64,000 nucleotides of DNA. It comes from a virus. The position numbers and the translations under genes were made by a program. The notes beneath the pieces were generated by a model. It saw only the letters and a list, made by a program, of their open reading frames with translations. It was not told where the DNA came from and searched no databases. The DNA lies in IMG/VR virus record IMGVR_UViG_3300045988_079139, positions 68,378 through 132,377 of that record; one strand, given 5' to 3'. Shown in pieces: positions 31,777 through 54,288 of the stretch (within the stretch, counting starts at the first letter, position 1; each line of letters starts with the position of its first letter).

Positions 31777-33285
31777 TTACTGGTTGTCGGCCAGCTTGGC
31801 ACCAAGCATACCACTGATGATAGACATGGGGTCTACACCAGTTGCACCACGGAAGCCTTCGATAATCTGGGTCATGTTACCCATCATGTTGCCAGCCAGC
31901 TGACCGGAATCGTTACCAATCAGGTGGATGTCAGCACCGGCGTAGCCCTTACCGATAGCCTCAGCGATTGCAGGCAGCTGCTCATACAGCACCTTAACCG
32001 CATCCAGTTCCATCTGCTGCTTAGCAGCGTCGCCGTACTGCTTCAAAGCTTCAGCCTTTTCCAGCATACCCTTTGCCTCAGCCTCAGCCTTAGCACGGAT
32101 AGCCTCTGCTTCCGCCAGACCCTTAGCCTGTTCAGCAGCAGCTTCTGCTTCACCCTGAGCCTTGATAGCGGCAGCCAGTGCCTTCTTAGCTTCTGCCTCA
32201 GCAGTAGCCAGAGCCAGGTCGGCCGCAGCCTTCTTTTCAGCCTCGATGCGAGCAGCTTCAGCCAGCTTCTCACGCTCATACAGGTCGGCTTCCGCAGCCT
32301 TCTGAGCAGCATATGCCTTAGCATCAGCAACCTGCTGAGCAGCATACTTGTCGGCGTCAGCCTTCTTCTTAATCTCAGCTTCCAGCTTACGCTCAGTGAT
32401 AGCAACCTCGCGCTCCTTCAGCTCGATTTCCTTCTCCTGGCGAGCCAGGTTTGCGTTTGCCACAGCGATTTCGTGCTCCTTACGCTGGTGCTCAGCCTCG
32501 ATAGCCTTAGCAGCGTCAGCCTTTGCCTGAGCGGTGTCAGCCTGCTCCTGCATAGCTGCCTTTTCGACAGCAAACTCGGTCTGCTTCTTAGCAATCTCAG
32601 TAGCAGCCTTGACCTTTGCGTCGTTAGCTGCCTTGTCGTTCTCAGCCTCGGCAACGGCAATCTCACGCTGAGCATTGGACTTCGCAATGGCAGCGCCCTT
32701 ACGAATCTGCTCGACGTTGTCGATACCTAGGTTGTCGATTACGCCACCTTCATCAGAGAAGTTCTGAACATTGAAGGAAACCAGCTCCAGACCAAACTTA
32801 GCCAGGTCAGGAACGACGTTTGCCTGAACCTTATCAGAGAAAGCCTTACGGTCAGAAACCATTTCAGTCAGCTTCATCTGACCAACGATTTCACGCACAT
32901 TACCTTCCAGAAGGTCATTAATCTTGGCACCAATGGTATCACGATTGATGTTCAGGAAGTTCTGAGCGGCAAGAGCAATCATTTCATCGGAACGACCAAC
33001 GCGGACAGCAACAGTAGAGTCAACACGAACGTTGATGTACTCGGCGGTAGGAACAGCAGTCTTGGTCTTTACGTCAATCTGAATCGCACCAAGGGACAGC
33101 TTATCAAGACGCTCAAAGAAAGGAATCTTGATGCCGGCCTGGCCAATCAGGATACGGGGCTTCTTGCGGACACCGGAAATGATATAAGCCATATCAGGGG
33201 GTGCCTTGGTATAACCAGAAGCAAGCAGGATAATGACTGCCAGAGCAATCAGTGCGGGAACAATCAAACCAACCAAATTAATCAT
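31777..33285 (-). CDS. flotillin-like SPFH/band-7 protein (FloT/YuaG-like)
   Basis: N-terminal TM helix, SPFH core, then a ~250-aa Ala/Glu/Lys-rich coiled coil. Architecture matches Bacillus FloT (~500 aa). Confidence 0.8.
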   Translation of the reverse strand: MINLVGLIVPALIALAVIILLASGYTKAPPDMAYIISGVRKKPRILIGQAGIKIPFFERLDKLSLGAIQIDVKTKTAVPTAEYINVRVDSTVAVRVGRSDEMIALAAQNFLNINRDTIGAKINDLLEGNVREIVGQMKLTEMVSDRKAFSDKVQANVVPDLAKFGLELVSFNVQNFSDEGGVIDNLGIDNVEQIRKGAAIAKSNAQREIAVAEAENDKAANDAKVKAATEIAKKQTEFAVEKAAMQEQADTAQAKADAAKAIEAEHQRKEHEIAVANANLARQEKEIELKEREVAITERKLEAEIKKKADADKYAAQQVADAKAYAAQKAAEADLYEREKLAEAARIEAEKKAAADLALATAEAEAKKALAAAIKAQGEAEAAAEQAKGLAEAEAIRAKAEAEAKGMLEKAEALKQYGDAAKQQMELDAVKVLYEQLPAIAEAIGKGYAGADIHLIGNDSGQLAGNMMGNMTQIIEGFRGATGVDPMSIISGMLGAKLADNQ

Positions 33286-33657: not shown

Positions 33658-34221
33658 CTATAGCATATCCAAGCACTTCTGGGTTTCTGCTTTCATCATT
33701 TCGATAGCATCATCCAGAAGCACGGGAGCACAGCCGTTGGAATCCATACCAACATGGAACATATAAGGCATATCCTGGAAGAAGTGAGTCTGCTGGTGAG
33801 TATGACCATACAGATTAATCAAATGCATACGCAGGTAAGGAGCCTTTTCCAAATTTGAAGTCAAAGTGGGATGATGACTCAGATAGAAGTTGTACTTCTT
33901 ATATTTCAGAGTAATCGCCATAGGAAGGACTTCAACATTTTCGAGCTGCTTATACAACTCAATTCTCTTGTCAGTGTCATGATTACCAGGAATAATCTTG
34001 ATATGACCATTCAGCTGGCGCAGACACTCAAGACCATGCTCATTGTCATTGAGCATTACGTCGCCCAAGTGGTACACAACATCATCGGGACCAACTACAG
34101 AGTTCCAATTTGCAATTACTGCGGCATCATGCTCCTGAATAGAAGTGAAGCCACGAGGAGAGAAGAGAAACTCTCGGTCATGTCCGAAGTGAGTGTCACT
34201 GGTAACGAAGATTCTACTCAT
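33658..34221 (-). CDS. calcineurin-like metallophosphoesterase (ends at a TAG codon)
   Basis: Motifs DTHFGH, GDVMLN, GNHD, GHTH. The terminal codon is TAG; read-through would add about 40 residues. Confidence 0.75.
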   Translation of the reverse strand: MSRIFVTSDTHFGHDREFLFSPRGFTSIQEHDAAVIANWNSVVGPDDVVYHLGDVMLNDNEHGLECLRQLNGHIKIIPGNHDTDKRIELYKQLENVEVLPMAITLKYKKYNFYLSHHPTLTSNLEKAPYLRMHLINLYGHTHQQTHFFQDMPYMFHVGMDSNGCAPVLLDDAIEMMKAETQKCLDML

Positions 34222-34784
34222 ACATTTACCTCCTTTGTGACACCCTCTGCATCAACCACATAGACGTGGGTGAAACCCTCGTCCGCAGTGGGATAAGCAT
34301 AGGACTTAAACATATTATCAATCGCACTCACGGGAACTCTTGCTCGACCGGAGCGGAGTGAATTTCTTGCCTGGCAAAGCTCAACCGGAGTGCTGAAGCA
34401 CACACAGTTAAGTTCACCGATGTTTGTTTTCTTGACTCGATTAAGAGTCTTGTTACGAGAACGCTTATTCAAATGAGTAGCGTCAATGTAGATGGAATGA
34501 ATTTCATCTCTCTCAAGAGTCTGATTGATGTAATTGATGAAAGTGTCGAATACTTCATCTTCGTGAGAGAAGTAATCTTCATCTTCGCTTACAATCGCAA
34601 ATCGCACATTGTCTCGAGAAATCCATTCAGAACCAGGTGTCAGATGCGCTCTAATCCACGTGGACTTACCCGACGCAGGAGGCCCCGACAAAAGATAAAC
34701 TTTCTTTGGCTTCATCCTTATACACCCCATTAGCAAAATTTTCACGAAACTCTTCAACTTCGTCGAATGTCTTGCACTCAACAT
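34218..34784 (-). CDS. P-loop kinase (polynucleotide kinase / AAA_33-like); start probably the internal MKPKKVYLLSG
   Basis: Walker A LLSGPPASGKSTW followed by a kinase-like fold. Confidence 0.6.
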   Translation of the reverse strand: MLSARHSTKLKSFVKILLMGCIRMKPKKVYLLSGPPASGKSTWIRAHLTPGSEWISRDNVRFAIVSEDEDYFSHEDEVFDTFINYINQTLERDEIHSIYIDATHLNKRSRNKTLNRVKKTNIGELNCVCFSTPVELCQARNSLRSGRARVPVSAIDNMFKSYAYPTADEGFTHVYVVDAEGVTKEVNV

Positions 34785-35231: not shown

Positions 35232-35948
35232 TTAAGTCATATAAGGGTCAGAACAAAAGACTTCTTCATCCCAAGTGTCCAAGTTCAACAGAACGCAGTA
35301 ACCAGTAAACACCGCGCCGCAATCAATGCAGCATTTTCTGCCCCCAGCATACCAGAGTGCGCCAGGCTCAATCTCACCCATTTGGCAAGCAGGGTCAATT
35401 TCATCCAGAAGATATGGGATAGGAGTGTGACCGTGGACAACAATTGCCTTCTGGAATTTTTCGTGAGTAGACCATTCATCAAGGAAATGATCTCTACTCC
35501 AAATCAAATCTTCGCCCCAAACCCAAGTCACTTCACCGTCTACATTAATATCGGGAGTGAAACCCGCATGGGATAGATATACATCTTCGCCTTGAACGTT
35601 GGTATAAAGAGCTTTGTCCGGCAAATCTCTCAGACGAGCACGCCACTCGGCCCAATTTGGCTCTTCCATAGCCTGATGATAAGTGTCCTTACCACCGTTA
35701 CTACGAAGCAGGTTATACTGACGACCATATCCTCTACCCATTGCATCAACAAGCATATCTTCGTGGTTGCCCTTAATGTAAATGAACTGAGGGTCATCCA
35801 TAATTGTTTTGATACATTCCCAAGGATGCGGGCCGCGATCACCGGCGTCACCAAGGAAGTATACAATATCTTCGGGCTTCAAAATATCTTTGATAGCCTT
35901 GTAAAAATGCAACATACCATGCAGGTCGCTGCAAGCATATACAGCCAT
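35232..35948 (-). CDS. PPP-family Ser/Thr protein phosphatase-like metallophosphatase
   Basis: DLHG, GDAGDRGP, GNHE and HGHT motifs. Confidence 0.75.
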   Translation of the reverse strand: MAVYACSDLHGMLHFYKAIKDILKPEDIVYFLGDAGDRGPHPWECIKTIMDDPQFIYIKGNHEDMLVDAMGRGYGRQYNLLRSNGGKDTYHQAMEEPNWAEWRARLRDLPDKALYTNVQGEDVYLSHAGFTPDINVDGEVTWVWGEDLIWSRDHFLDEWSTHEKFQKAIVVHGHTPIPYLLDEIDPACQMGEIEPGALWYAGGRKCCIDCGAVFTGYCVLLNLDTWDEEVFCSDPYMT

Positions 35949-35949
35949 T

Positions 35950-36117
35950 ACTTTACCTCCTTACTAGGGACAAGGATAAACATATAATGGGTAAATCCGA
36001 TTTCCTTGAAAGCCTCGTGAACTTCATCATAGTCTTTAGCAAACAAACCGGGTGTAATAGGATTTTTTTCAATCTTCCCGTCTTTCTCTTGGAAGATGAA
36101 TCCTTTGATTTCATACA
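35950..36117 (-). CDS. small hypothetical protein (55 aa), translationally coupled to the phosphatase gene
   Basis: Hand translation MYEIKGFIFQEKDGKIEKNPITPG...FILVPSKEVK ends in TAATG, overlapping the phosphatase start codon. An AAGGAGG ribosome-binding site lies inside its 3' end. Confidence 0.3.
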
Positions 36118-36153
36118 TATTTATCAATTCCTTTTCTTTAACTTTATATATAT

Positions 36154-36182
36154 ATTATAACATATTTTTTAATAAAAATCAA
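36154..36182 (-). promoter_or_regulatory. consensus cassette promoter
   Basis: Forward attata 36154-36159, aatcaa 36177-36182. Confidence 0.6.
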
Positions 36183-36206
36183 AGAGGAAGCATTACGCTT
36201 CCTCTA
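36183..36206 (-). terminator. intrinsic terminator hairpin
   Basis: gaggaagc atta cgcttcctc. Confidence 0.5.
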
Positions 36207-36720
36207 AGATATGGAGAATGTCATCAACAATAGCATCATAGCCAGTTACATCGCCAGTTGAAATCGTGTAAGGAAGCTGCTCATTGTTGAGCAATTCCAG
36301 AATTTCATCGGCAATTTTATCAGACTCTTCCTCAGTTTGGAAGCGTCCTATCGGATTATATTCTTTAGTGCGAACTAGGAAATAATTTTTGCAATTATAA
36401 CTATTCATTACCTTGCGGACGACATTATTAAAATCTTCACCCAAAACCGGGTCGTTGTTATAAACCAAAGATAGAAGCAAGGGAGAGTCGGTAATAACAA
36501 CATCAACCTTGTCAGCACAGCGACTAATACGGAAATACTGCTTGCCAAAGATGTAAGCCTGATTGTTGAAAACGGCTTTGCTCTCTTCCCATACCTTATC
36601 TTTAGCGAATTCAGTTACCAACTCTGCGTTAATACCTCGCATTTTAAGTTGGCTGAAAATATATGCGGCACCAGTGGATTTACCAGTGCCAGGGGAACCG
36701 AACAAATTAACTAAAATCAT
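36193..36720 (-). CDS. P-loop ATPase, NadR-like ribosylnicotinamide kinase / AAA_28 candidate
   Basis: Walker A LFGSPGTGKSTGAAY. A small kinase-like protein sitting in the NAD cluster. Confidence 0.4.
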   Translation of the reverse strand: MILVNLFGSPGTGKSTGAAYIFSQLKMRGINAELVTEFAKDKVWEESKAVFNNQAYIFGKQYFRISRCADKVDVVITDSPLLLSLVYNNDPVLGEDFNNVVRKVMNSYNCKNYFLVRTKEYNPIGRFQTEEESDKIADEILELLNNEQLPYTISTGDVTGYDAIVDDILHILEEA

Positions 36721-37166
36721 TTGTTTGCCTCCTCGTAGCGAATTTCAGTGCGGAGTTCCATCAGTAACATACCCAGCATATTGCGGCCAGGAATCTCTTG
36801 ACACTTCTGGCAAACACAATTACCCCAGGTATTATCGTGCCAAGTATTGCCCTCAATCAGCTCTTCATCACCAGTTGCAAGCAACATGGCTCTGAGCTTA
36901 GGGTCTTGGAACTTCAAACGGAGACCGCGCATCATTACATCGGTCTTAACTTCTTCCCAATCCTTTCGCAGAGTACAATGTCTACCCAGTCTCTTGGCCT
37001 TGCCAGGGGTATCTGCGATTGCAATAGATTTGAATTCTATAGGAATTTCAGTTTTCCAAGCTTGAAACCAGTTTTCCACAGTTGGGAATGTGATTCCATC
37101 AAAGGTAATGGGAGAGGGATAGAAGTTGCTCAAAAAAGCGTATTTTCCATCAAACATCGCAATCAT
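36717..37166 (-). CDS. NADAR (DUF1768/YbiA-like) domain protein
   Basis: FLSNFYPSPITFDGITFPTVENWFQAWK... Confidence 0.65.
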   Translation of the reverse strand: MIAMFDGKYAFLSNFYPSPITFDGITFPTVENWFQAWKTEIPIEFKSIAIADTPGKAKRLGRHCTLRKDWEEVKTDVMMRGLRLKFQDPKLRAMLLATGDEELIEGNTWHDNTWGNCVCQKCQEIPGRNMLGMLLMELRTEIRYEEANK

Positions 37167-37178
37167 AGCGATACCTCC

Positions 37179-37982
37179 TTAAAACCAAATATCGGGTTCT
37201 TTAGTGCTGTTTTCATGCCAAGTGCGAGTCTTGACACGAATATAGGGAAGAGCAATAGCTCTCTTATGGAGATTTCTCTTGTGACGCTCTTCAATATTGC
37301 GAAGAGTATCGTAGTCGGGCACTACTTCATCTAGGAGATAAGCATCCAGAACATCGTAGGTGAAACCCATATTATCTTCATCAGTCTTGCCACTCATGCC
37401 ATCACCAGGAGCCTTATGAATCAAATGTGCGGGAATTTCGTCCAGATTATCACCAATCTCAAGAACTTCACGAACATAATAATCCTTAAGGATAGCAAAG
37501 TCACCAGCTAAATCGCCATACTTGGTAGTATAGCCGACATATAGCTCGGAAGCGTTGCCAGTATTCATAACTCGACCGCCGATATCTGCAGCAACTGCAT
37601 ATAGCATAGCCATACGAATACGAGCAGGAGTATTTGTAGCAACAATGGGCTTGGAGTAAGCGGAACCAAACTGACCCTTAAACATAGTAGTAATAGGACC
37701 AATGTCAATGGTGCGATACTTAATACCAAGAATTTCGCAGACTTCAATCGAATCATTAATATCTGTCTGAACATTATCGGGCATTAGAACGCCATACACT
37801 CTATCTTTACCCAGCGCTCGGACGAGCAGAGCGGCCGCAATTGTAGAGTCCTTACCGCCAGAAATGCCGATGACAGCCTTGGTATCCTTATTACCATTTT
37901 CAACGAAATATCTCTTAATTTCGTCAACCATATGCTGAATCTCGGTCTCAGCATTAATTACCTTAAAATCAAAATCTCCCAT
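37179..37982 (-). CDS. nadE: NH3-dependent NAD+ synthetase
   Basis: PP-loop ISGGKDSTIAAALL; 267 aa. Confidence 0.85.
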   Translation of the reverse strand: MGDFDFKVINAETEIQHMVDEIKRYFVENGNKDTKAVIGISGGKDSTIAAALLVRALGKDRVYGVLMPDNVQTDINDSIEVCEILGIKYRTIDIGPITTMFKGQFGSAYSKPIVATNTPARIRMAMLYAVAADIGGRVMNTGNASELYVGYTTKYGDLAGDFAILKDYYVREVLEIGDNLDEIPAHLIHKAPGDGMSGKTDEDNMGFTYDVLDAYLLDEVVPDYDTLRNIEERHKRNLHKRAIALPYIRVKTRTWHENSTKEPDIWF

Positions 37983-37984
37983 AT

Positions 37985-38491
37985 TTACGCCTCCAATTTG
38001 TAAATATATACATCATAGTCCTCAGAGAGGGCTTCCCAAATCATTGTTTTTATAACTTCCCAATTTGCGCCACCAAGGCCGCAGCCAATATGGTCAGGAA
38101 AGCCAATTTTACTACCCATGGGTACTTGCTCCCTAATCTTGCCAAGACAAGACCAGAAGCCATCATAAGAAGTATACCTCTTACCATCATAGCCATAATA
38201 TTGCTGTGCAAACATATTTATCACAGTCTTGTCTACTTCAACGGGAACTAGCTGGATATCTCCAAGAAGAACTTCACTTACATCAATATGAGATTCCCAG
38301 CTGCCGCACATTTCAATTACTTTATTTCTTACACTATCGCACTTTGCGATATAATCATCATATACTCGATGCCACTTTGTCTTAATGCTCTTGGCAATGC
38401 CAGAGGCCATGCGCCCCTGGCAATTCACCTGATGACAGTAGTAATCCAACTTAGCTTCGAGCATATCACCTTTGACAAAGTGAATACTCAT
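37985..38491 (-). CDS. macro domain protein (ADP-ribose binding / deacylating)
   Basis: Starts at MSIHFVKGDMLE...DYYCHQVNCQGRMASGIAKSI. The ORF-track extension up to 38650 overlaps the NAMPT gene in another frame and is rejected. Confidence 0.65.
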   Translation of the reverse strand: MSIHFVKGDMLEAKLDYYCHQVNCQGRMASGIAKSIKTKWHRVYDDYIAKCDSVRNKVIEMCGSWESHIDVSEVLLGDIQLVPVEVDKTVINMFAQQYYGYDGKRYTSYDGFWSCLGKIREQVPMGSKIGFPDHIGCGLGGANWEVIKTMIWEALSEDYDVYIYKLEA

Positions 38492-38492
38492 A

Positions 38493-40325
38493 TTAGAAAC
38501 CCTCCGGATACATACGATTACGAATCTGAGCCAGAGTATCTTCGCGAGCCATCTCGCCATCGCAGAAGACCAGCTGAAGCAGATTATCATCGAAGTTAGC
38601 ATAATAGTGAGCCTGTTCGAAGGTCCACTCATCAGTGTAGCTTTCACCATCTAGAGCAACCTTTACGCAACCCTTCTGGCTCTTTTTCCAAGATAGTTCC
38701 TTGGGATTCTTGAAAATCATAATAGGCTTTGCGTCAACTTCACCATAGGTAGCCTTAATTGCGATACCAAATGTATCACGAGTGTAGGGATTATAGTGAA
38801 CGCCATTGCTATCATAAGTTTCCAGACACATGAAGCTGAAGGAGCCAACGCCAAGAGAAACATTGTTGATGGCATAGCCCTGCTGCGCCAGACGCTTATA
38901 AATCTCTTCGCAGCGCTGAGGAGTAATAGAATCGCCGTACAGAGCCTTGATGTAAGGAGGCAGAACCTTATAACCCTTTTCGTTCACAGTGTGACCGAAA
39001 ATCTGGTCAAGTGCCCATACCAAACCCATAATCTGAGCAGTACGTTCACATTCATGCCACTTAATTTCATAAGTGTCAATGAAGGAGTAATCACAATCGG
39101 TCCAGCCACCACGCTCTTCGCCCCAAACAGCCTTAAACTTTACTTCATAGAACTTACCATTGAAGTCAAAATAAATGGTTTCTTCAGAGTCGATGCCGGA
39201 ATCCCAGGCGTAGTCGAGCATCCAGTCGTGAGTGAACTCCTTGTCGACGAACAGGTCCTTAGCCTCGCACTCATCGTAAGGTTCATAGAACTCAATTTTC
39301 TTACCGGCCATAATCTCTACAGGGTCACCAGAGTCACCACGGATAGCCAGATAACCCTGATGCTCTTCGATTTCCTTTTTGCACTGAGGCAGAATGTTAG
39401 TCACCAGGTTCCAGAAGTCGTAGCTATCAGAAACCATAGAGAAGCTGGAAGTAGGATAAATCTCGGTCAGCAGACGCTTGATATGGGTAATCTCGTCACC
39501 ATCAACAGAGAAATTGGAACACATAACAGAGTGTTCGGTAGAAATTGCACCATAGCCAACTTCTTCCTTTTCGATGTCGCAGTTATAAAACTCTTCCATT
39601 GCCATAATTGCGGGAACGGTGGCGGTATTCAAGAAAGAGAGCAACCAACCCATAGAGGACTTCATCGCGGACTCAGGAGAATGCTGACCACGCATAGAGA
39701 AGTCACCGAGTAAACGAGCAGTGCGGACGTCCTCGCCGCAGGTCATATCCTTATACTTCTGGACAATCTTACGATAACGATAGCCGACTTCAGCGGAAAT
39801 CTGAATATGCCACATAAAGCAGGAATAAGCAGTTTCCAGAGTGTTGGTCAGCCAGGCGAAGTCAGGATGGGTGTTTACGAACACAGATTGGGGAACGCCA
39901 ATCTTGGTGCGAGTGCCCTCGGGAACAGTATACATAGCGATAGGTAGGTAACCCAGGCGATGCAGCTTGCGAATCTTCTCGGGATTGTAGGTACCAGGAC
40001 CCAGAGTGTAAGTCAGCACACGATTGTACTCCTTGCAGACTTCATCTTCGGAACGATTGAAGAAGTGCTCATTGAAAGCACCAATTAGATAACTCTTGGC
40101 GAACATCTGACCGCCGAAGTAGGTCACGTGGTCAGTGTCCTTGAGGCGGGTCATACGGGGAGTATAGGGAGAATAGCATAGAGTCATATTGGCAGGATAC
40201 TGCTCGGAGTGAACGGCTTTGTAGAAATCAATCATCAGAAGCGGATTATACATATTATCAGTTTCCTTTCTTTTTTCTCGCAATTCGGATTTTCTTACTC
40301 TCAATCTTATTGGGAATGTGCTCAC
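38493..40325 (-). CDS. nadV: nicotinamide phosphoribosyltransferase family protein (NadV / Namat-like)
   Basis: Aligns with NAMPT: FSMVSDSYDFWNLV vs VSVVSDSYDIYNAC, IRGDSGDP vs IRPDSGNP, GYKVLPPYIKALYGD vs GYKLLPPYLRVIQGD. It is 610 aa, longer than typical NAMPT. Confidence 0.85.
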   Translation of the reverse strand: MSTFPIRLRVRKSELREKRKETDNMYNPLLMIDFYKAVHSEQYPANMTLCYSPYTPRMTRLKDTDHVTYFGGQMFAKSYLIGAFNEHFFNRSEDEVCKEYNRVLTYTLGPGTYNPEKIRKLHRLGYLPIAMYTVPEGTRTKIGVPQSVFVNTHPDFAWLTNTLETAYSCFMWHIQISAEVGYRYRKIVQKYKDMTCGEDVRTARLLGDFSMRGQHSPESAMKSSMGWLLSFLNTATVPAIMAMEEFYNCDIEKEEVGYGAISTEHSVMCSNFSVDGDEITHIKRLLTEIYPTSSFSMVSDSYDFWNLVTNILPQCKKEIEEHQGYLAIRGDSGDPVEIMAGKKIEFYEPYDECEAKDLFVDKEFTHDWMLDYAWDSGIDSEETIYFDFNGKFYEVKFKAVWGEERGGWTDCDYSFIDTYEIKWHECERTAQIMGLVWALDQIFGHTVNEKGYKVLPPYIKALYGDSITPQRCEEIYKRLAQQGYAINNVSLGVGSFSFMCLETYDSNGVHYNPYTRDTFGIAIKATYGEVDAKPIMIFKNPKELSWKKSQKGCVKVALDGESYTDEWTFEQAHYYANFDDNLLQLVFCDGEMAREDTLAQIRNRMYPEGF

Positions 40326-40506
40326 GAGTTGCCAATTCAGCCTTTACGCGAGCCTGATAGGCTGCTTTAGCAGTGCAATCATCGGGAGTCCAATCGTAGT
40401 CACCCCAACGATAAGTGTGACGCAGATGTGCCAGAAGCTGGCGGGTTTTCATATTTTTCATCTGTTCCTCAGAGAGGATTTCACAGTCTTTTTCAAAATT
40501 ACTCAT
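40258..40506 (-). CDS. small basic hypothetical protein
   Basis: 82-aa ORF with AAGGAG ribosome-binding site and consensus promoter upstream. Confidence 0.4.
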   Translation of the reverse strand: MSNFEKDCEILSEEQMKNMKTRQLLAHLRHTYRWGDYDWTPDDCTAKAAYQARVKAELATREHIPNKIESKKIRIARKKKGN

Positions 40507-40534
40507 TTAATCATCTCCTTTACTTTCTATATAT

Positions 40535-40563
40535 ATTATATCATATTTTTTATAAAAAATCAA
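40535..40563 (-). promoter_or_regulatory. consensus cassette promoter
   Basis: Forward attata 40535-40540, aatcaa 40558-40563, followed by an AAGGAG ribosome-binding site. Confidence 0.6.
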
Positions 40564-40592
40564 AAAAGACCCTCTTGTTTAGAGGGTCTTTC
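40562..40592 (-). terminator. intrinsic terminator hairpin
   Basis: aaaaaa gaccctct tgtt tagagggtc, abutting the -35 of the next promoter. Confidence 0.6.
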
Positions 40593-40593
40593 T

Positions 40594-41004
40594 TTATTCT
40601 TCAGTTGGAGGGTCGCTATAGAACTCAATACCGCACTCTCCCGACTCGGGGAACCATTCGGCAATCGAAGTAATTTTACCATCGTAGTCAGTAATTACAA
40701 TATATTCCATTCCATCGCTCATTACAAGGAAATAAGTCCAGCAAGCACATCGATACTCCTGCAGCATAAATACATCTGGAACATGAGCTAAAATTGTATC
40801 AATAAAATCTTCGTTCCCAATTCTAGGACCAATCATGTCCTCCAAGATGAGAATGGCATTCTCATTAAGGTCGGGGACAGATTCAACAGTTGTTTCTGTA
40901 GAGGGCGTGGTTTCCTCCTCATAAGGGGTGTCACAAGCAATAAGTGACACACAAAGGCAAATTGCCAAAATAAAGCAAATAAAAAGTTTAATCGCTTTCT
41001 TCAT
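40594..41004 (-). CDS. putative lipoprotein
   Basis: Signal peptide with lipobox LIAC. Confidence 0.55.
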   Translation of the reverse strand: MKKAIKLFICFILAICLCVSLIACDTPYEEETTPSTETTVESVPDLNENAILILEDMIGPRIGNEDFIDTILAHVPDVFMLQEYRCACWTYFLVMSDGMEYIVITDYDGKITSIAEWFPESGECGIEFYSDPPTEE

Positions 41005-41777
41005 TACGCTTCTCCTTCTGGAATTTCAATTAAATTAAATACATCTTGAATATCTTCGTGAAACACTAACGCCGCAGTAAAGTCCGCAACTGTAGGGTCT
41101 CGATTGATTACAACTAAATGGTCATCATCGCAGTAGAACGGCAGGCTGGCAGCAGGTTGAACGGTCAGAGAACTACCAACAACAATCATTAAGTCAGCTT
41201 GACCTGCTGCCACCTGGGCGTTCATCCAGGCAGGTTGAGCCAGTCCTTCACCATACAGTACGATATCTGGTCTGATTGTAGCTTCACCACCGCACAGAGC
41301 GCACTTGGGAACACCAAACATATTATCATGGTTTCCATCCAGCACGTCATTAGGAAAATACAGGTCATATCCGCAATCCTGGCAATACCAGCGACTCATA
41401 GTGCCATGGACCGCATATACCTTATCCATTCCAGTTTCTTCGTGCAATCCGTCAATATTTTGTGTAATGACAGACACATCTCTTGCTTGCTGCAGCTCAC
41501 AAATTCTTTGATGGGCGATGGTTGGCTTAGCTCCACGAAAATCCATTTTATCACGCAGATACTGGAAAAAAGCCTCCTCGTGCGCATACAGACAAGTATT
41601 GCTCAGCATATACTCGGGACTTCTGCCGCCAATTCCCGGCGCAGAATATAAACCGTCTGCGCTACGAAAATCCGGAATTCCGGAGCCGGTGGAAATACCA
41701 GCTCCGGTAAAGAACACGATATGCCGAGCGTCCGCAATCATTTTATTCAGTTTTGCAATACGCTCATTAAAATCCAT
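41004..41777 (-). CDS. Sir2-family NAD-dependent deacylase (sirtuin)
   Basis: GAGISTGSGIPDFR and zinc ribbon CQDCG...CALCGG. Confidence 0.85.
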   Translation of the reverse strand: MDFNERIAKLNKMIADARHIVFFTGAGISTGSGIPDFRSADGLYSAPGIGGRSPEYMLSNTCLYAHEEAFFQYLRDKMDFRGAKPTIAHQRICELQQARDVSVITQNIDGLHEETGMDKVYAVHGTMSRWYCQDCGYDLYFPNDVLDGNHDNMFGVPKCALCGGEATIRPDIVLYGEGLAQPAWMNAQVAAGQADLMIVVGSSLTVQPAASLPFYCDDDHLVVINRDPTVADFTAALVFHEDIQDVFNLIEIPEGEA

Positions 41778-41779
41778 TT

Positions 41780-42277
41780 TTATTCTCCTAACACTGCTTT
41801 GACGCAGGCATCGCCCGTAGCCATAGCTTCCTTTAGTGCCTCCTGGGCAACCTTCATATCGCAGCCTTCTTTCTTCAAGAAAGGCATCACATTTTTCATA
41901 ATGATACCCTTATTCTGAGAAACAATGGAAACTGCGTTACAGACACCCCAGTAGTTAATCATCTTAACGATTTCATCCTTGTCGTCAATTACCTTAGGAG
42001 CATACTCCGCAGCAATCGCCAACTTCATCAAATATTCTGCTTTCTTTTCAGCATACTTCTCGGTGTCAGGACAGGTGTCTACCATTTCCTGAACGGTTTT
42101 CTTATACTTCAGCAACACTTCATCGACAAAAGCATCAGTGATTTCTACCCTCTTTTTACCAGATGTAGCAGCTTTGTCGATTGTGGCGACCATATCAGCC
42201 AGAGTCAAACGTCTCAGCTTGTCGCCGTTTTTCAAGGCAGCTGTCATTTCTGCCTTAATAGACTCATACTTATTCAT
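41780..42277 (-). CDS. GatB/YqeY domain protein
   Basis: YqeY-like helical sequence (AALKNGDKLRRLTLADMVATI...). Confidence 0.55.
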   Translation of the reverse strand: MNKYESIKAEMTAALKNGDKLRRLTLADMVATIDKAATSGKKRVEITDAFVDEVLLKYKKTVQEMVDTCPDTEKYAEKKAEYLMKLAIAAEYAPKVIDDKDEIVKMINYWGVCNAVSIVSQNKGIIMKNVMPFLKKEGCDMKVAQEALKEAMATGDACVKAVLGE

Positions 42278-42294
42278 TGGAGCCTACTCCTTTC

Positions 42295-43131
42295 TTATTT
42301 CATAATGGTAATCCAGTCAGCCCAGTAGGGGTCATAGCCATGGCTACTCTCACATAGCTTTGCGGGGAAGATGGATTCAGTGGTATATACATGGTCAACT
42401 AGACCGTCGGATGCAGCAAGTTCACCAAGAGTAATGGTTTCCTCACAGTGAGTGACATACAGACTTACGCTCTTGGCACCAGCAGCTTTCAGAGCCTTGG
42501 CAGAGTGGTAGAAAGTACCACCGCGGGAGCAAATATCATCAACAATTAGAACATCCTTGCCAACGATATTGTCAGTGTTGATAATATCCAGACCCTCAAT
42601 CTTACCAGTCTTCCAATCTCGCTTTTTCATTCCAAAAGCGTAAGGCAGTTCGGACTCGCTGGAATACCGCTTCATAGCGCCTTCATCGGGATAGAACATT
42701 GCGTTTGCACCGGACAGCTCAATCGCTTTTCTGATATAAGCCTTAACACCGGTATCACATACATTGTCAATGAGAGCCAGGCTCACGTTGCTATGAGCAT
42801 CACGCACCCAAACAATAGAGAAATGCAGAGAATTGATAACTTCTGCAAAATACTTTAGAGTAAAAACATCTTCGTCAGCTTTTACTCTATCCATACGAGC
42901 GTGAGGAATATAGGGCATATCCAGGATAACTCGCTCGCCAGGGAAATGAGTATCGATATGGCGCTTCACGCAAATCAGAGTGAAGAGCTCGCTATCGCCT
43001 TCATAGAGCCATTCTACCTTAACTGCTCCATGATGGTCAAACATTTCATCAGGATTCAGCTTCAGAAGCAGGGAATGGTCGGGGAACATATTCTGACCCC
43101 AAGGAATGGAAATCTCACCAACTCTAATCAT
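42295..43131 (-). CDS. ribose-phosphate pyrophosphokinase family protein (Prs / ADPR-PP synthase Adps-like)
   Basis: MPYIPHARMDRV and PRPP-binding loop VLIVDDICSRGGT. Confidence 0.75.
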   Translation of the reverse strand: MIRVGEISIPWGQNMFPDHSLLLKLNPDEMFDHHGAVKVEWLYEGDSELFTLICVKRHIDTHFPGERVILDMPYIPHARMDRVKADEDVFTLKYFAEVINSLHFSIVWVRDAHSNVSLALIDNVCDTGVKAYIRKAIELSGANAMFYPDEGAMKRYSSESELPYAFGMKKRDWKTGKIEGLDIINTDNIVGKDVLIVDDICSRGGTFYHSAKALKAAGAKSVSLYVTHCEETITLGELAASDGLVDHVYTTESIFPAKLCESSHGYDPYWADWITIMK

Positions 43132-43143
43132 ATCTTATCCTCC

Positions 43144-43734
43144 TTAGATAATGTTAATCTGGCAGAGCTTCATAGCTTCCAGGGCGGTTTTATGGGATTC
43201 GGGAGTGACGCAAGCGCAGCAGTCAGCTACGATATTGACAGGAACTTCAGGCAGAGTTGCCTTTGCCAGAATGGCATTGGACATAACACAGATGCCAGTG
43301 CATAGACCCATCAGAGTAACCTCTTCAACGCCCATACGCTCGTTAATATCGAACAGAATATTCTGCAGTTCGACAGAGCCAAAAGTAGGCTTCTCAACCT
43401 TGATAGGATTGATTTCGGTCATGGGATAGACTTCATATGCGTCGGCATAAGTGTCGATGACATTGATGTAAGCATTAAATACTTCATCAACAATGGAATG
43501 ACCCGCAGTGCCTTTGATACAGTGAGGAACAGGTAGATTCTTACCTTCCAGAGTGCTCATATAATTATCGGGGTGAGTATCCTTGGTAAAGATAACCACG
43601 GTATCGGGGGCTGCCATCTGTTCAATAGTTTCTGCGACCAGAGGAACGATTGCCTGTGCCTCCTTGGTGCCAAGAGAACCATCGACGAAATCCTTCTGCA
43701 TATCTACAACAATAAGAACTTTCATATAATTCAT
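43144..43734 (-). CDS. pncA: isochorismatase-family hydrolase, nicotinamidase (PncA)-like
   Basis: Cysteine hydrolase fold with MGLCTGICV. Confidence 0.7.
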   Translation of the reverse strand: MNYMKVLIVVDMQKDFVDGSLGTKEAQAIVPLVAETIEQMAAPDTVVIFTKDTHPDNYMSTLEGKNLPVPHCIKGTAGHSIVDEVFNAYINVIDTYADAYEVYPMTEINPIKVEKPTFGSVELQNILFDINERMGVEEVTLMGLCTGICVMSNAILAKATLPEVPVNIVADCCACVTPESHKTALEAMKLCQINII

Positions 43735-44710: not shown

Positions 44711-44889
44711 TACTTTCTTTCTCCATCGCCGACCTTAATCCAACAGAATTCTTCAGCGTGAGTTTTAATTACCCAAACTTCTCCCGCTTCTGGAATATCT
44801 TGGGAGTGGCTACATAGCCACTCCGCATATTCAGCCATTGAGCGGAAATCAAACAGCTTCGGCCGCAGTATCCTCTTCATCCAATCCAT
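44671..44889 (-). CDS. hypothetical protein
   Basis: 72-aa ORF. Confidence 0.35.
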   Translation of the reverse strand: MDWMKRILRPKLFDFRSMAEYAEWLCSHSQDIPEAGEVWVIKTHAEEFCWIKVGDGERKYCDLVALRAGEGT

Positions 44890-46294
44890 CGGCTTCCTCC
44901 ATGTCAGGCGCCTCAGCGGTTTCCTTAATGATGCCTTCCAAGACCTTGAACTGGAAGTTCTTATGCTTGTAAGCAGTGAAAGTAGGACGATTGATTACAC
45001 GAATTACGACACCCTCACGGATGTGAGTGGGGTCAATAGGCTCTTCACCATCGTAGAACTCTTCTGCCTTAGCCAATACGAACTGACCGGGGTCAGTGTA
45101 CTCGCAAGAGGTACCAGTGAACACTTCCTCGTCGGGGATGAAACCATACCAGTGGACGGGGACACACTTAACACCCATGTACATACAACGATGATGCATC
45201 TGGTCAGGAGTGTATTCCACAACCTCACCATCTTCGTTAGTCATAGTCATACGATATACATAGATATCATTTTGAGGCTTTTTAGCCAAAACATTACCAT
45301 TGGGGTCTTTGGGGTCAGGAGTTACTCCCCAACCATCGGTGCTAGGGCCATAACCAGAAGGAGAGCAACCATAAGAGAAGACAGTCTTTTCACCGTACTT
45401 CTTAACGAACTCCTTATCCTTCAGCTTCTTGTTGTCGCAGACACCCATAATAGAACCACCATCATGAGTAAAGCCAACAATCTCGTAGTAGACAGTTTCG
45501 CCCTTTAGCAACTTACCCTCGAAGAAATCATGGTAAGGCTTACGGAACTCATTAGAGCCATAGAAGCCACCATCGAAAGTGTCAAGGACAGTACGACGAG
45601 TACCAGATACGATACCCCAATCGTAGATAGGAGTACCCTCACGACGGAATAGCTTATCCCAGATAGTGCGCTTCATACCCTGAAAGACCTTGGTATGAGA
45701 AGTACGAGCGGAAGTTCCGTGGAGCTTACGAGTAATCTCAATCAAGTCACCAGGCTTGAACATATGCAGGTTGTAAGCCAGCTGTTCAGTATCGATGTGC
45801 TCGTAGAACACAGGTGCGATAGAGCGCTTTGCCTTACGCTTAGCACGCTTACCAGCACCGCCCGCAGAGGTAGCAGGATGCTTGCCACGAGGAATATACT
45901 TACGACAGATTTCATGACCATTCACAGTGGTGATAGTATCACCGATATTCAAGGAGTCCATGTCTACGCCAGTGTACTCCAAGCACTTCAAAGGCAAGAA
46001 CAGACCGTCAGACTGCTCACCACGCAGCTTAATCGCCTTGACATTGCGCTTAGCGGGGTCCATGTATCCGCCGGAAACATTGACACCATTTTCATATACA
46101 GCCAGAAGACCATTCTTCTGACAGAACTCCATAGACAGCTGCAGGTCTACGGGGAAGTAAACACCGATTTCACCCTCGTGATACATATCCTTATTTACGC
46201 AAACAGTGTTCACAAAACAAGTTGCTAGTACCAGCTTATCGGCATTGGGGTGCTTACGCACATTATTCAAAGTAGTTACATATCCACAATGCAT
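44849..46294 (-). CDS. RNA ligase (Rnl2-like nucleotidyltransferase) with N-terminal tRNA-binding OB domain
   Basis: N-terminal HPNADKLVLATCFV (Trbp111/CsaA-like) and motif I KLHGTS (compare T4 Rnl2 KIHGTN). Confidence 0.65.
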   Translation of the reverse strand: MHCGYVTTLNNVRKHPNADKLVLATCFVNTVCVNKDMYHEGEIGVYFPVDLQLSMEFCQKNGLLAVYENGVNVSGGYMDPAKRNVKAIKLRGEQSDGLFLPLKCLEYTGVDMDSLNIGDTITTVNGHEICRKYIPRGKHPATSAGGAGKRAKRKAKRSIAPVFYEHIDTEQLAYNLHMFKPGDLIEITRKLHGTSARTSHTKVFQGMKRTIWDKLFRREGTPIYDWGIVSGTRRTVLDTFDGGFYGSNEFRKPYHDFFEGKLLKGETVYYEIVGFTHDGGSIMGVCDNKKLKDKEFVKKYGEKTVFSYGCSPSGYGPSTDGWGVTPDPKDPNGNVLAKKPQNDIYVYRMTMTNEDGEVVEYTPDQMHHRCMYMGVKCVPVHWYGFIPDEEVFTGTSCEYTDPGQFVLAKAEEFYDGEEPIDPTHIREGVVIRVINRPTFTAYKHKNFQFKVLEGIIKETAEAPDMEEADGLDEEDTAAEAV

Positions 46295-46310: not shown

Positions 46311-46667
46311 TCAAGTTAAAATAATTTTAGTTGGGTCACCAACATTACTTCTATCACACCATCCACTATCTCGTAGATAGATAATAGGACCTTTACCATG
46401 TTCTTCCCAATATCGCTCAACATAACTGTCACCCTTACAATAGTGAGGGACATACTCTGCCCCATCTTCGATGATAGGTCCGGGGAAAATCTCACATATC
46501 TCTACGGGGGCATCACCTTCATCTAAGTCATTGTATAAGAATACAGGCGTATTGGGTGGAAACTGGGATAAAGCACGAATAATTTCACCTGCAGTAGCAG
46601 TCCATTTACCCATTAATTTTCCTCCTTTGCGGCAGCCGCAATTGCGCCTTCGGGAGAATACTCCCAA
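46311..46667 (-). CDS. hypothetical protein
   Basis: 118-aa ORF. Confidence 0.4.
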   Translation of the reverse strand: MGVFSRRRNCGCRKGGKLMGKWTATAGEIIRALSQFPPNTPVFLYNDLDEGDAPVEICEIFPGPIIEDGAEYVPHYCKGDSYVERYWEEHGKGPIIYLRDSGWCDRSNVGDPTKIILT

Positions 46668-47515
46668 TAGCAGTTATATCTACACTTACCTGTCTGAGGT
46701 GCGGACTTCAGCGCAGCCTCAATCTTTCTCACAGCGTCTTCCTTCTTAGGAGATACATTGCGAGCAATATACTTAATTACCCATAGAGCGGCAGTATTAA
46801 AGTCGTTAAAATACTTGGACTGACCGCTGTGCTGGTCAGTACACTTGAGCATCCAACTATTCTCATTTGCGCCAGTTTCAGCTTCCCACTTAGGCTGAGA
46901 ATTCCACTTCTGGAATACCGCAGGAGCCTTTTTACCGGTCTGAGGACGGGGCTGAGAAGGCATAGCCAGAATAGTGTCTTTATCTTCGGGCTTACACTTA
47001 TCATAAAGATGAGCAACGACAGTTTCAAGCATACGAGCATCTTCCAGGGCGTCGTGTTTCTGAACCAGTTCCTTCTGCTCCTGGATGAGCATATATACCT
47101 TACGAAGAGCCAGGTCGCTCTTAGCGACAAAGAACTTCTTTACAATAGAAGCATAGTCAATCAAATTACCGGCGATAGCCTGGGCGCAGACACAAGCCTG
47201 TGTGCTACTCATATGGCGCAGGGTGGAATTGATAAAATCAACATCCGAATTACCATAGACATAATAAGTCGGTGCTTCACCATCGCTATTGGCTTCGATA
47301 AAATCATACAGCATCTCAAATGCAGTATCAGCATCTGGAGCATTAGCCAGCATCTCATTCGTGATGCCGGTCAGCTCAGTGATGAATCTATCGACCTTTT
47401 TCTTATCACCAGGATTGACATATGTTTCAAATGTCTCGCCTGTGCCGGCGACACAACCGATACTGATAATTCGATTGGAAAATCTCGTTGCTTCAAAGTC
47501 TAAGTAAAAATTCAT
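46613..47515 (-). CDS. DEDDh 3'-5' exonuclease (DnaQ/RNase T-like) with C-terminal extension
   Basis: Exo I YLDFEAT, Exo II YGNSDVDF, Exo III HDALEDARM. Confidence 0.75.
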   Translation of the reverse strand: MNFYLDFEATRFSNRIISIGCVAGTGETFETYVNPGDKKKVDRFITELTGITNEMLANAPDADTAFEMLYDFIEANSDGEAPTYYVYGNSDVDFINSTLRHMSSTQACVCAQAIAGNLIDYASIVKKFFVAKSDLALRKVYMLIQEQKELVQKHDALEDARMLETVVAHLYDKCKPEDKDTILAMPSQPRPQTGKKAPAVFQKWNSQPKWEAETGANENSWMLKCTDQHSGQSKYFNDFNTAALWVIKYIARNVSPKKEDAVRKIEAALKSAPQTGKCRYNCYWEYSPEGAIAAAAKEEN

Positions 47516-47620: not shown

Positions 47621-48535
47621 TTACATCATAGCTTCTCGAAGCATCTTTGCACGAACGGGATTTCTGAGCTTACGAATTGCCTTATTTTCAATCTGACGAA
47701 TACGCTCCTTGGACAAACCATAATGGTCGCCAACCTCTTCCAAGGTCATAGCTTTTTCAACATCAATGCCAAAACGCATCTTCAAAATCTCTGCTTCACG
47801 AGAACCGAGAGTATCAAGGATGCTTGCCACAATCTGCTTGTTAGCTTCCTTAATCATATTCGCAATAGGATTCTCTGCAGAGTGGTCCGCAATCAAATCA
47901 CCCATACAAGTCTCTCCTTCATCATCAACAGGAGTGTCCAGAGAAGTGGTTGCCTGGGCAATATCCATGACTGCCTGTACCTTATCAAGCTCAATATCCA
48001 TATGAGCAGCGATTTCCTTATCAGAAGGAGCTCTGCCGAGCTTCTGAGTGAGTTCCGCAGTTGCCTTCTTCACCTTGCTCAGCAATTCAACCATATTCGC
48101 AGGAATACGGATGGTTCTGGACTGGTCACCCAGCGCACGAGAGATAGCCTGGCGAATCCAGTAAGTGGCATAAGTAGAGAAACGGAAACCCTTAGAGCCG
48201 TCATACTTCTCAGCGGCCTTAATCAGACCGAGATTACCCTCCTGGATAAGGTCGAGCAGAGGCAGGCCGCAACCATAATACTTCTTGGCAATAGATACAA
48301 CCAGAAGCAGGTTACATTCAACCAGTTCATTAATGGCATTATGGTCACCAGCCAAAGCCTTAACAGACAGCTCTCTCTCCTGTTCAGCAGTCAGACGACG
48401 ATGATTACCAATGGACTTTAGATAAGCCTTAACACCATCAAGGACAATGCCGCTATCGTAATCATAGGTTTCAGTCTCGCTCAGTTCACGAGCATCCTCT
48501 TCCATAATCATTACATTTTCATTCATTTCCATCAT
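47621..48535 (-). CDS. RNA polymerase sigma-70 family factor
   Basis: Region 2 [36 protein letters not shown]; region 4 [28 protein letters not shown]. Confidence 0.85.
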
Positions 48536-53548: not shown

Positions 53549-53890
53549 TTAATCGTCAATATCTCTGCGGTAAAGTTTTAAATCACCATAGAAACCGCTA
53601 TATTCCATAGTGAGTTGAAAATCATAGTCGGGGTGAGCATACCAATACCAGGTATCTTGCTGCCAGCCGTTTTCATCAAAGTCCAACCGCTCCCATCCAT
53701 CCTCCTGGAGAATTGTATCTAATTCAGAGGGTGCATAAATGGGGGTAAATTCTCGGATATCTAAAACAAAATCAGATTTTTTAGGAAAGACTTCTCGAAT
53801 ATAAAAACTTGTAATAAAACGAGCAGTCAAATCATGTAAATGTTTGCGGCGTTCCGCAGGTGTCATTTCATCAAGACAAGGTTTATTCAT
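53549..53890 (-). CDS. hypothetical protein
   Basis: 113-aa ORF. Confidence 0.4.
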   Translation of the reverse strand: MNKPCLDEMTPAERRKHLHDLTARFITSFYIREVFPKKSDFVLDIREFTPIYAPSELDTILQEDGWERLDFDENGWQQDTWYWYAHPDYDFQLTMEYSGFYGDLKLYRRDIDD

Positions 53891-54288
53891 TACTTTACCT
53901 CCGTCCAGCCATTGCGCTGAATAATTGCTTGCATTCTCTGTCTTGCTACGGGATTTGCAGAATGAATACGGATAGGGATATTGCGACCAGTAGCTTCGAG
54001 CCAGTCTAAGAGTTTGTAACCCTCAGCCTCATGCTCACCAAGGTCATTATCGCAGGAAATTACTTCGACAGACCATATCTGGTGACGACGCTCGAAAGTT
54101 TCTCTATCAGTATAACCAAGAATATACTGTTCCCAATCCCAATCGGACTCACGATTGTATCGTGTAATCTCATAGATAGCAGACTCAACAGTCTTAACCC
54201 AGATATATCCCTCGGGTGCGGGGCGAATATCATCCATCCACAGCTTCATCGAAGTCTTCCTCCTTTGCTCCAAAATAGCAACCATCAC
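53890..54288 (-). CDS. hypothetical protein
   Basis: 132-aa ORF. Confidence 0.4.
   Translation of the reverse strand: MMVAILEQRRKTSMKLWMDDIRPAPEGYIWVKTVESAIYEITRYNRESDWDWEQYILGYTDRETFERRHQIWSVEVISCDNDLGEHEAEGYKLLDWLEATGRNIPIRIHSANPVARQRMQAIIQRNGWTEVK

Follow-up and report, generated by a model that had tools for sequence, protein, structure and literature searches.

The 64,000 nt stretch of viral DNA analysed here (the window, from IMG/VR record IMGVR_UViG_3300045988_079139), whose positions serve as coordinates throughout, contains an island of NAD+ and ADP-ribose genes from 35232 to 43734. Its conserved core, PncA - Adps - variant Namat - (macro) - NadE, is probably a deamidated form of the phage NAD reconstitution pathway NARP1, in which sequence and gene context suggest that NAD+ would be rebuilt from nicotinic acid and ADP-ribose pyrophosphate (ADPR-PP), giving nicotinic acid adenine dinucleotide (NaAD) and then NAD+. 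Both NARP1 (Osterman et al. 2024, bioRxiv 10.1101/2024.02.11.579819) and NARP1-AP, which adds the macro phosphatase Adpp (bioRxiv 10.64898/2026.01.28.702374), are experimentally validated counter-defences. The core operon of the island would most likely also serve to rebuild NAD+ from the leftovers of NAD-destroying defences.

The island consists of 13 genes, all on the minus strand, and the whole 33 to 46 kb stretch is also coded on that strand. In the order of transcription, the genes encode a PncA-like, an Adps-like, a YqeY-like and a Sir2 protein, proteins of 136 aa and 82 aa, the variant Namat-family transferase, a macro-domain protein, NadE, a NADAR protein, an AAA_28 protein, a 59 aa protein and a NinI-like protein. 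YqeY, Sir2 and two genes of no known family, all four accessory, interrupt the core in the window, and NADAR comes after it. Family calls, drawn from Pfam, PHROGs, NCBIfam and solved structures, are firm for seven of the 13 (PncA-like, Adps-like, sirtuin, Namat-like, macro, NadE and NADAR), with NadE, the sirtuin and NADAR passing the curated family cut-offs. An earlier note on this DNA, made from the sequence, had counted NAD or ADP-ribose enzymes in eight of 14 open reading frames (ORFs). The cluster is real, but the count is seven, perhaps eight, of 13. Among 50,697 GenBank phage records, NadE homologues are present in 51 and PncA homologues in 12, and because these are so rare the clustering of the island genes is not a matter of chance.

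The proposed pathway would begin with a defence NADase, or another NAD glycohydrolase, splitting NAD+ into nicotinamide and ADP-ribose. PncA would convert the nicotinamide to nicotinic acid, and Adps would convert the ADP-ribose to ADPR-PP by pyrophosphorylation. The variant transferase, whose pocket has a new Ser and no longer the amide-reading Asp, would then couple nicotinic acid to ADPR-PP and so give NaAD in one step, and NadE would amidate NaAD to NAD+. The macro protein may return ADP-ribose-1''-phosphate, or the O-acetyl-ADP-ribose produced by the phage sirtuin, to ADP-ribose as in NARP1-AP, and NADAR may separately remove ADP-ribose from DNA. Each substrate and product in this scheme, like the counter-defence role, is predicted from sequence and gene context. 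With a true Namat, the nicotinamidase would be removing the substrate and NadE would have nothing to do; the above is the simplest scheme in which PncA, Adps, the variant transferase and NadE all have a part, with NadD not required. The earlier note had hinted at 'a deamidated route as well'; the direction of this was right, but the 'as well' is doubtful, since the module probably has no other route than the deamidated one.

The variant transferase and its partner enzymes

The variant transferase (38493-40253; phrog_448, 6e-151) is a candidate nicotinate ADP-ribose transferase of 586 aa, taking the ATG at 40253 as its start. It scores 394 bits against the solved Namat of SPbetaL1, 287 bits against NadV of H. 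ducreyi and approximately 117 bits against human NAMPT. The best Foldseek superposition of its AlphaFold model (81.4 by the predicted local distance difference test, pLDDT) is on Namat, with a target TM-score of 0.91. In NCBIfam it comes closest to a model with the name nicotinate phosphoribosyltransferase, falling just short of the cut-off of 405 with 401 bits. It had been claimed that the pairing of a Prs-like and a NAMPT-like protein marks the NARP1 lineage, and the bit scores to Namat and Adps, the Foldseek result and a rooted tree all agree with this.

In the structure of SPbetaL1 Namat, Asp215 makes a hydrogen bond to nicotinamide and Ala242 lines the same pocket; a D215A substitution lowers the NAD+ output of this enzyme 8-fold (PMC12774641). 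The counterpart of Asp215 in human NAMPT, Asp219, sets the substrate specificity of that enzyme (PMC7096376). In the window protein the Asp215 position is occupied by Ala211 (39621-39623) and the Ala242 position by Ser238 (39540-39542). This Ala215/Ser242 signature, in Namat numbering, is present in all 120 of the best metagenomic homologues, in all 73 variant-type IMG/VR loci (one with Ser215) and in 79 of 79 scored genome loci. The other nicotinamide and ribose-phosphate residues are kept (D13, Y15, F189, R192, R306 and D308), as are Arg40 and Phe392 of the clamp. Judged by its sequence, the protein is not a canonical Namat, as the Asp that reads the amide of nicotinamide is absent.

The adenine clamp of the window protein, from G470 to D493 (38775-38846), is GSFSFMCLETYDSNGVHYNPYTRD, which is 24 residues as compared with the 11 residues of GSFTYQYNTRD in Namat. 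It departs from the consensus GSX-phi-X-phi-X-phi-TRD, where X is aromatic, in that the motif is interrupted; the Phe at position 3 and the TRD are kept. Most variant members have a clamp of 20 to 56 aa, against 11 aa in canonical Namats. The NAMPT-family protein had been described as approximately 120 aa longer than canonical NAMPT. It is 586 aa against 491 aa for SPbetaL1 Namat, the excess being a 91 aa inserted subdomain at approximately residues 318-408 (39030-39302) and a 13 aa extension of the clamp motif, and this length is not peculiar to the protein.

Both of these additions were considered as marks of a new function and rejected. The 91 aa insertion is also found in canonical Asp215 Namats (those of Tsamsa, Kirov and loci L040-L043, L054 and L070 in the comparison below) and is absent from most variant members. 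The lengthened clamp is not the defining change either, as it is missing from two members that combine the Ala/Ser pocket with the full operon, Phass-1 and C. tagluense L106, where the clamp is of 11 aa. Because the clamps of these two are normal and the insertion is shared with canonical Namats, it is the pocket change, rather than the clamp extension or the insertion, that tracks with PncA and NadE.

The Adps-like protein (42295-43131; phrog_619, 2e-70) is a Prs homologue of 278 aa and a candidate ADP-ribose diphosphokinase. Among the sequences compared, it scores 129 to 144 bits against the Adps of SPbetaL1, Tsamsa and Kirov, and 41 to 57 bits against E. coli Prs. It retains the catalytic Lys and misses every NCBIfam Prs cut-off, the best model being TIGR01251, with 71 bits against 113, and the equivalog models falling far below theirs. 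On these similarities the kinase belongs with the Adps clade and not with cellular Prs. Four genes separate the kinase from the transferase in the window, and in most relatives the two are neighbours.

The first gene of the core encodes a PncA-like nicotinamidase of 196 aa (43144-43734; Pfam isochorismatase, 2e-23). Its best solved relatives are nicotinamidases, the PncA proteins of P. horikoshii and M. tuberculosis, with 1ilw matched at 5e-15. An alignment to P. horikoshii PncA shows the same Asp, Cys and D-x-H...H-C metal site, and is ambiguous at the catalytic Lys. Against the NCBIfam PncA model it reaches 41 bits, where the cut-off is 174. The last core gene encodes NadE, an NH3-dependent NAD synthetase of 267 aa (37179-37982; Pfam, 6e-55; TIGR00552, 176.6 bits against a cut-off of 63.65).

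The macro-domain protein (37985-38491; 168 aa), the start of which abuts the stop of the transferase, is a candidate Adpp-like ADP-ribose-1''-phosphate phosphatase. It is recognised by PHROGs (phrog_335 'phosphatase', 3e-31), by NCBIfam and by solved structures, and has no match to any Pfam model, those for macro domains included, at E<=0.01. Among solved structures, it is related to the DarG macro domain, BT1257, Poa1p and TARG1. The Poa1p match, at 1e-4, covers only the N-terminal 64 residues, and the DarG macro domain and BT1257 score higher. With the macro protein of Vibrio phage K354, whose gene is flanked by those for Adps and Namat, it shares 34.5% identity. In Phass-1 (L088, OQ749652.1) the place where others have the macro gene is taken by a 140 aa ORF (5784-6203, minus strand) with a HAD-type DxDxT motif (FDFDDTV), and this may be a non-homologous phosphatase with the same job.

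Distribution of the module in phages and bacteria

The module was compared across 80 loci from IMG/VR, 80 loci from bacterial and archaeal genomes, and the reference phages SPbetaL1, FADO, Tsamsa, Kirov, Vibrio K354, Bas61, AS-zj, KP27, Phass-1 and phage G. A scan of IMG/VR with a single protein gave two loci, and an alignment-based scan was required for the locus set. Loci with Ala or Ser at 215 and Ser at 242 are classed as variant, 109 of which, each flanked by 4 kb or more on either side, were counted. Loci with Asp215 and Ala242 are classed as canonical; there are 13 of these, seven with full flanks.

Among the 109 variant loci, PncA is present in 108, NadE in 107, Adps in 107 and NadD in one. 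All 13 of the canonical loci have Adps, and NadE, PncA and NadD are each present in none of them. PncA and NadE are thus obligate partners of the variant transferase in one conserved operon. They had been seen as parts of a loose 'broader toolkit', which does not agree with their tracking the variant Namat in approximately 98% of the 109 loci, within a single operon. The usual order is PncA-Adps-variant Namat-(macro)-NadE, and the stop codon of one gene often overlaps the start codon of the next. In the window, L006 and L010, YqeY and Sir2 are inserted between Adps and the transferase. This strict co-occurrence is an observation, as are the family memberships, the active-site substitutions and the operon structure.

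Neighbour joining, with a phage Nampt as the root, places the variant clade inside Namat, beside the Namats of Firmicute phages. C. tagluense L106 is at the base of the variant clade, and the gut phage Phass-1 forms a separate long branch, at 27% identity. The pocket signature is accompanied by PncA, Adps and NadE in three deeply separated lineages: the main clade, L106 and Phass-1.

Among the related loci, a NadD/Nmnat gene was found only in L052, 7.6 kb from the module, in a search with one NadD query and two motif patterns that distant Nmnat types could escape. In the window, the 50 ORFs scanned with Pfam have no cytidylyltransferase-type domain, and the HIGH-motif patterns (G-x-F-x-P-x-H-x-GH and a looser form) are unmatched in any frame. 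The scanned window ORFs include no PnuC, NadR or Nmnat, nor do the related loci, save for the NadD-like gene of L052.

In 36 of the 80 bacterial loci the operon is chromosomal and beside an NrtR homologue, gut Clostridia being among the carriers; this is so in no phage copy. In Pseudoruminococcus massiliensis (L158, 6620-12312) the order is PncA-Adps-variant Namat-NadE-NrtR, the NadE being of the glutamine-dependent type (648 aa), and a like arrangement is found in 35 further genome loci. The operon of L158 is flanked by genes for AgrB, aspartate-semialdehyde dehydrogenase and an esterase. Contigs with the variant module have also been binned in metagenome-assembled genomes (MAGs) of methanogens (L105, L116, L139 and L144) and of Bacteroidota (L094, L127 and L136). 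The contigs with these far-flung labels are probably mis-binned phage, and host calls made from MAG labels are therefore unreliable.

A nucleotide search of the island against the GenBank phages found no match. In the GenBank searches the module is present in no phage with a named host, and the best matches are uncultured human-gut sequences, including the assembled Phass-1. Apart from Phass-1, the GenBank copies are unannotated human-faecal contigs; in Phass-1 the genes are annotated separately, with NadE as 'hypothetical'. The module is abundant in gut metagenomes, and surveys of isolate phages would therefore miss it.

The combination of PncA and NadE with Adps and Namat is not mentioned in the papers on NARP1, NARP1-AP, NARP3 and the NrtR regulon or in the survey of viral NAD and ADP-ribose genes. 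A literature search, with thin coverage of subscription papers, found no description of a nicotinic-acid NARP1. As far as was found in the searched literature, the one-step synthesis of NaAD out of nicotinic acid and ADPR-PP is apparently an undescribed reaction.

Chemistry and purpose of the module

The choice of ADPR-PP as the donor is favoured because the kinase is of the Adps type and Arg40 and Phe392 of the transferase are kept. It is further favoured because a Poa1p-type macro gene is frequent in the phage copies, being present in 51 of 67 phage loci as against 12 of 42 genome loci (full-flank variant loci), because NrtR, of an ADP-ribose-responsive family, adjoins the bacterial copies, and because the classical route in phage G has a PncB-type enzyme and NadD with no Adps. 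The Bacillus phage G locus (L089, 4124-11373) holds a full Preiss-Handler set of isochorismatase/PncA, PncB-type nicotinate phosphoribosyltransferase, NadD and NadE, with a Nudix hydrolase and KptA alongside.

A boost to Preiss-Handler salvage would have the kinase as a true phosphoribosyl pyrophosphate (PRPP) synthetase and the transferase making nicotinic acid mononucleotide (NaMN) from nicotinic acid and PRPP; host NadD would convert this to NaAD, and phage NadE would complete the route. The kinase, with its far higher scores to Adps than to E. coli Prs and its missed Prs cut-offs, does not fit the first of these steps. For the second, the pocket change speaks for nicotinic acid as the base and says nothing on the donor, Namat has PRPP activity in vitro, the clamp motif is off the Namat consensus, and the nearest NCBIfam model is the one for nicotinate phosphoribosyltransferase. 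On the other hand, the variant is placed inside the Namat clade and retains Arg40 and Phe392. The third step would be met by NadD in essentially all hosts. Against the route as a whole, the association with a macro phosphatase is sensible only with ADP-ribose as a substrate, and phage G, which does have the classical route, has the PncB-type enzyme and NadD without Adps. Overall, the NaMN route is judged unlikely.

Rather less likely again is that the module is an ordinary NARP1-AP, in which nicotinamide and ADPR-PP give NAD+, PncA and NadE are a parallel add-on feeding host salvage, and the Asp215Ala and Ala242Ser changes are neutral or compensatory. The phage nicotinamidase would then destroy the substrate of its own Namat. 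The cost of D215A to SPbetaL1 Namat is only 8-fold, Ser242 could take the place of the Asp in the amide hydrogen bond, and all of the other catalytic residues are kept. Neutral changes would not, however, account for finding the signature and PncA/NadE together in approximately 98% of the 109 variant loci and in 0 of the 13 canonical loci, across three deep lineages and usually as overlapping genes.

The purpose of the module can be considered separately, and here a supply role, compatible with any of the above chemistries, is possible though it is not the favoured explanation. The module may be an auxiliary metabolic operon from Clostridia that keeps NAD+ high for the phage ligase and sirtuin and recycles the products of the sirtuin. 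Homologous chromosomal operons with a glutamine-dependent NadE are indeed found beside NrtR in Pseudoruminococcus and 35 further genome loci, and the window encodes both LigA and a deacylase-type sirtuin. The LigA-type, NAD-dependent DNA ligase (18269-20254, minus strand; phrog_3869, 2e-166) gives the phage an NAD+ need of its own. Nicotinamide inhibits sirtuins, an inhibition that is relieved in yeast by Pnc1, and the module could recycle both nicotinamide and O-acetyl-ADP-ribose, the products of the sirtuin. Yet Sir2 is beside the module in only three of 83 phage loci, the macro gene is enriched in the phage copies, and NADAR and RNA-repair genes surround the module. Canonical NARP1 is also without effect when no NADase is present, free ADP-ribose being otherwise scarce. 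The counter-defence and supply roles are mutually compatible.

Several points weigh against the deamidated, counter-defence reading. For every member of the variant clade the substrates and products are predicted. As D215A causes only an 8-fold defect in SPbetaL1 Namat, an enzyme with Ala could still take nicotinamide, and as NadD is universal in hosts, an operon without it is still compatible with the NaMN route. The clamp, interrupted by an additional 9-42 residues, is off the published consensus, and with a model pLDDT there of approximately 60-70 the donor specificity is uncertain. The co-occurrence counts are not phylogenetically independent, with approximately three deep lineages being truly so. 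The detour through NaAD would also cost the phage an extra ATP. With regard to purpose, the chromosomal operon beside NrtR in 36 of 80 bacterial loci fits housekeeping salvage too, and the NAD-dependent ligase and sirtuin of the phage make plain NAD+ supply a sufficient motive.

The deamidated form of NARP1 is nevertheless the probable reading for the island core. For the wider proposal the chances are about even: that the variant is a nicotinate ADP-ribose transferase and defines a fourth NAD+ route, widespread in gut Clostridia, where it is chromosomal and beside NrtR, and in their large phages, where with a macro phosphatase it would act against NAD-depleting immunity.

Transcription units, neighbouring genes and known pathways

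The earlier note gave each gene of the island its own promoter and terminator. Most of the genes instead abut or overlap, and there are only four promoter copies and three hairpins, all on the minus strand. A terminator hairpin (43820-43789) and then promoter P1 (43788-43757; TTGATT, 17 nt, TGnTATAAT) head operon 1. A second hairpin (40594-40562), followed by promoter P2 (40563-40532), is at the border of operons 1 and 2. The third (36205-36183), followed by promoter P3 (36182-36151), is upstream of the 59 aa gene, and promoter P4 (35200-35231) heads the next unit downstream of the island. The 13 genes are therefore in three operons: PncA to the 136 aa gene, the 82 aa gene to AAA_28, and the 59 aa gene with the phosphatase.

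The motif TTGATTTT-N10-14-TATGnTATAATATA has 10 sites in the window (12432-62858), where none is expected by chance, and every one is on the minus strand. Four of these are counted within the island, three of them with a GC-rich hairpin and its T-run directly in front. Across the window, the promoter-like motif often sits straight after a terminator hairpin. The island promoters are strong, sigma-70-like and common to other genes of the window. The phage encodes a sigma-70-family factor of its own (47621-48535).

The NADAR-domain protein (36717-37166; 149 aa; Pfam NADAR, 8e-29) is a candidate AdfN-like DNA ADP-ribosylglycohydrolase. It has 98.5 bits to TIGR02464, against a cut-off of 73.7, and its solved relatives are YbiA (5e-21) and the NADAR protein 8bau (9e-14). 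The suggestion in the earlier note that NADAR points to anti-DarT activity is upheld in that the domain call is correct and the gene, as a candidate for this activity, fits the published phage anti-DarT1 factors. The CobB-type sirtuin deacylase (41004-41777; 257 aa; Pfam SIR2, 8e-43; NCBIfam NF001752, 251 bits against a cut-off of 221) is accessory. Two CxxC pairs, read by eye, are possible zinc ligands. Among the 83 phage loci, a homologue of the sirtuin is present only in L005, L006 and L010.

The P-loop NTPase or kinase (36193-36720; 175 aa) had been called NadR-like. It matches only the generic AAA_28 family (2e-10), and no specific similarity to NadR was found. Among solved structures it has no NadR or NRK relative, the best being a thymidylate kinase at E=0.55, and it has a homologue in none of the related loci. 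A reading of this gene as part of NARP3 (PnuC and NadR) is rejected on the same grounds.

The YqeY/GatB-like protein (41780-42277; 165 aa; Pfam YqeY, 8e-07) is also accessory. Its gene recurs beside NARP1 in both canonical loci (Tsamsa and Kirov) and variant loci (the window, L006, L010 and L013), and the recurrences include L001 (8944-9381) and L002 (9267-9710). The 136 aa protein (40594-41004) has a signal- or lipoprotein-like N-terminus, no Pfam or PHROG match, and a homologue in L005 and L006. The 82 aa protein (40258-40506), encoded by the first gene of operon 2, has no family match and is kept in L005, L006 and L010. The 59 aa protein (35948-36127) has no family assigned. The last gene of the island encodes a NinI/ApaH-like metallophosphatase of 238 aa (35232-35948; Pfam Metallophos, 9e-14; phrog_246, 3e-35). 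Its distance from the module varies in relatives, and it is part of the synteny of the phage lineage rather than of the core module.

The window is DNA of a large gut phage. Elsewhere in it are genes for DnaB, RecJ, topoisomerase II, the NAD-dependent DNA ligase, PhoH, an endolysin, a sigma factor, DHFR and ThyA, and close homologues of the variant transferase sit on contigs of up to approximately 200 kb. RNA-repair-like genes are scattered around the island, all on the minus strand (33658-34784, 44849-46294, 46613-47515, 48766-49704, 53890-54288 and 61246-62745). These comprise a Pnkp-like AAA_33 kinase and metallophosphatase, an RNA ligase, RNase T, a Thg1 tRNA-His guanylyltransferase, a cyclic-phosphate receiver domain and a DUF2828/DUF7788 protein labelled 'RNA-binding' in PHROGs. 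The neighbourhood of NARP1 also includes RNA ligase in Tsamsa and Kirov and Thg1 in FADO. Two proteins are unusual in a phage: one of 841 aa with Major Vault Protein shoulder and vault-repeat domains (54805-57330, minus strand) and one of 502 aa that is SPFH/Band-7/flotillin-like (31777-33285, minus strand). A further phage protein (62912-63880, minus strand) has GmrSD N-terminal and HNH nuclease domains and is type IV restriction-like.

The module resembles NARP1 in having, on a phage, an Adps-type kinase derived from Prs within five genes of a Namat-clade transferase, and the transferase fold, catalytic His, Arg306 and Phe189 are shared. It differs in the Ala for Asp215, the Ser for Ala242, the longer clamp of most members and the obligatory PncA and NadE, and in that the transferase is predicted to make NaAD rather than NAD+. 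With NARP1-AP it shares a macro gene of the Poa1p/phrog_335 type directly beside the transferase. Here, however, macro comes after the transferase, whereas there it is between Adps and Namat, and the island protein also resembles the macro domains of DarG and TARG1; the comparison was made with the macro protein of K354, the experimentally tested Adpp being that of Vibrio phage Gary. As in Preiss-Handler salvage (PncA, PncB, NadD and NadE), PncA is first and NadE last, but Adps and a Namat-family enzyme stand in place of the PncB-type enzyme and NadD.

Bacterial nrtR-prs-nadV operons have been described, in which a Prs paralogue and a NadV-family gene are beside the ADP-ribose-responsive NrtR (Rodionov et al. 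2008, PMC2330246). The bacterial copies of the present module share this arrangement, but add PncA, NadE and Ala215/Ser242, and the phage copies are without NrtR. NARP2 (Nampt and Nmnat) and NARP3 (PnuC and NadR; PMC13464706) are likewise phage routes that restore NAD+, although none of Nmnat, NadR and PnuC is in the scanned window ORFs. The NADAR protein, with its candidate activity on DNA, is a stand-alone phage protein like the anti-DarT1 factor AdfN (PMC11825919), but its best-scoring models are YbiA-type N-glycosidases.

NAD+ depletion is among the commonest of the bacterial antiviral strategies, and the three phage rebuilding pathways that are known all end in nicotinamide chemistry. If the present reading is true, NARP1 would have a nicotinic-acid branch, bringing with it a new enzyme reaction and a two-residue specificity switch that is open to residue swaps. 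Such a branch would also account for the presence in gut phages of NadE and nicotinamidase genes, which are otherwise very rare in phages. The chromosomal copies beside NrtR suggest an overlooked recycling of ADP-ribose in bacteria, which bears on the NAD metabolism of the human gut microbiome.

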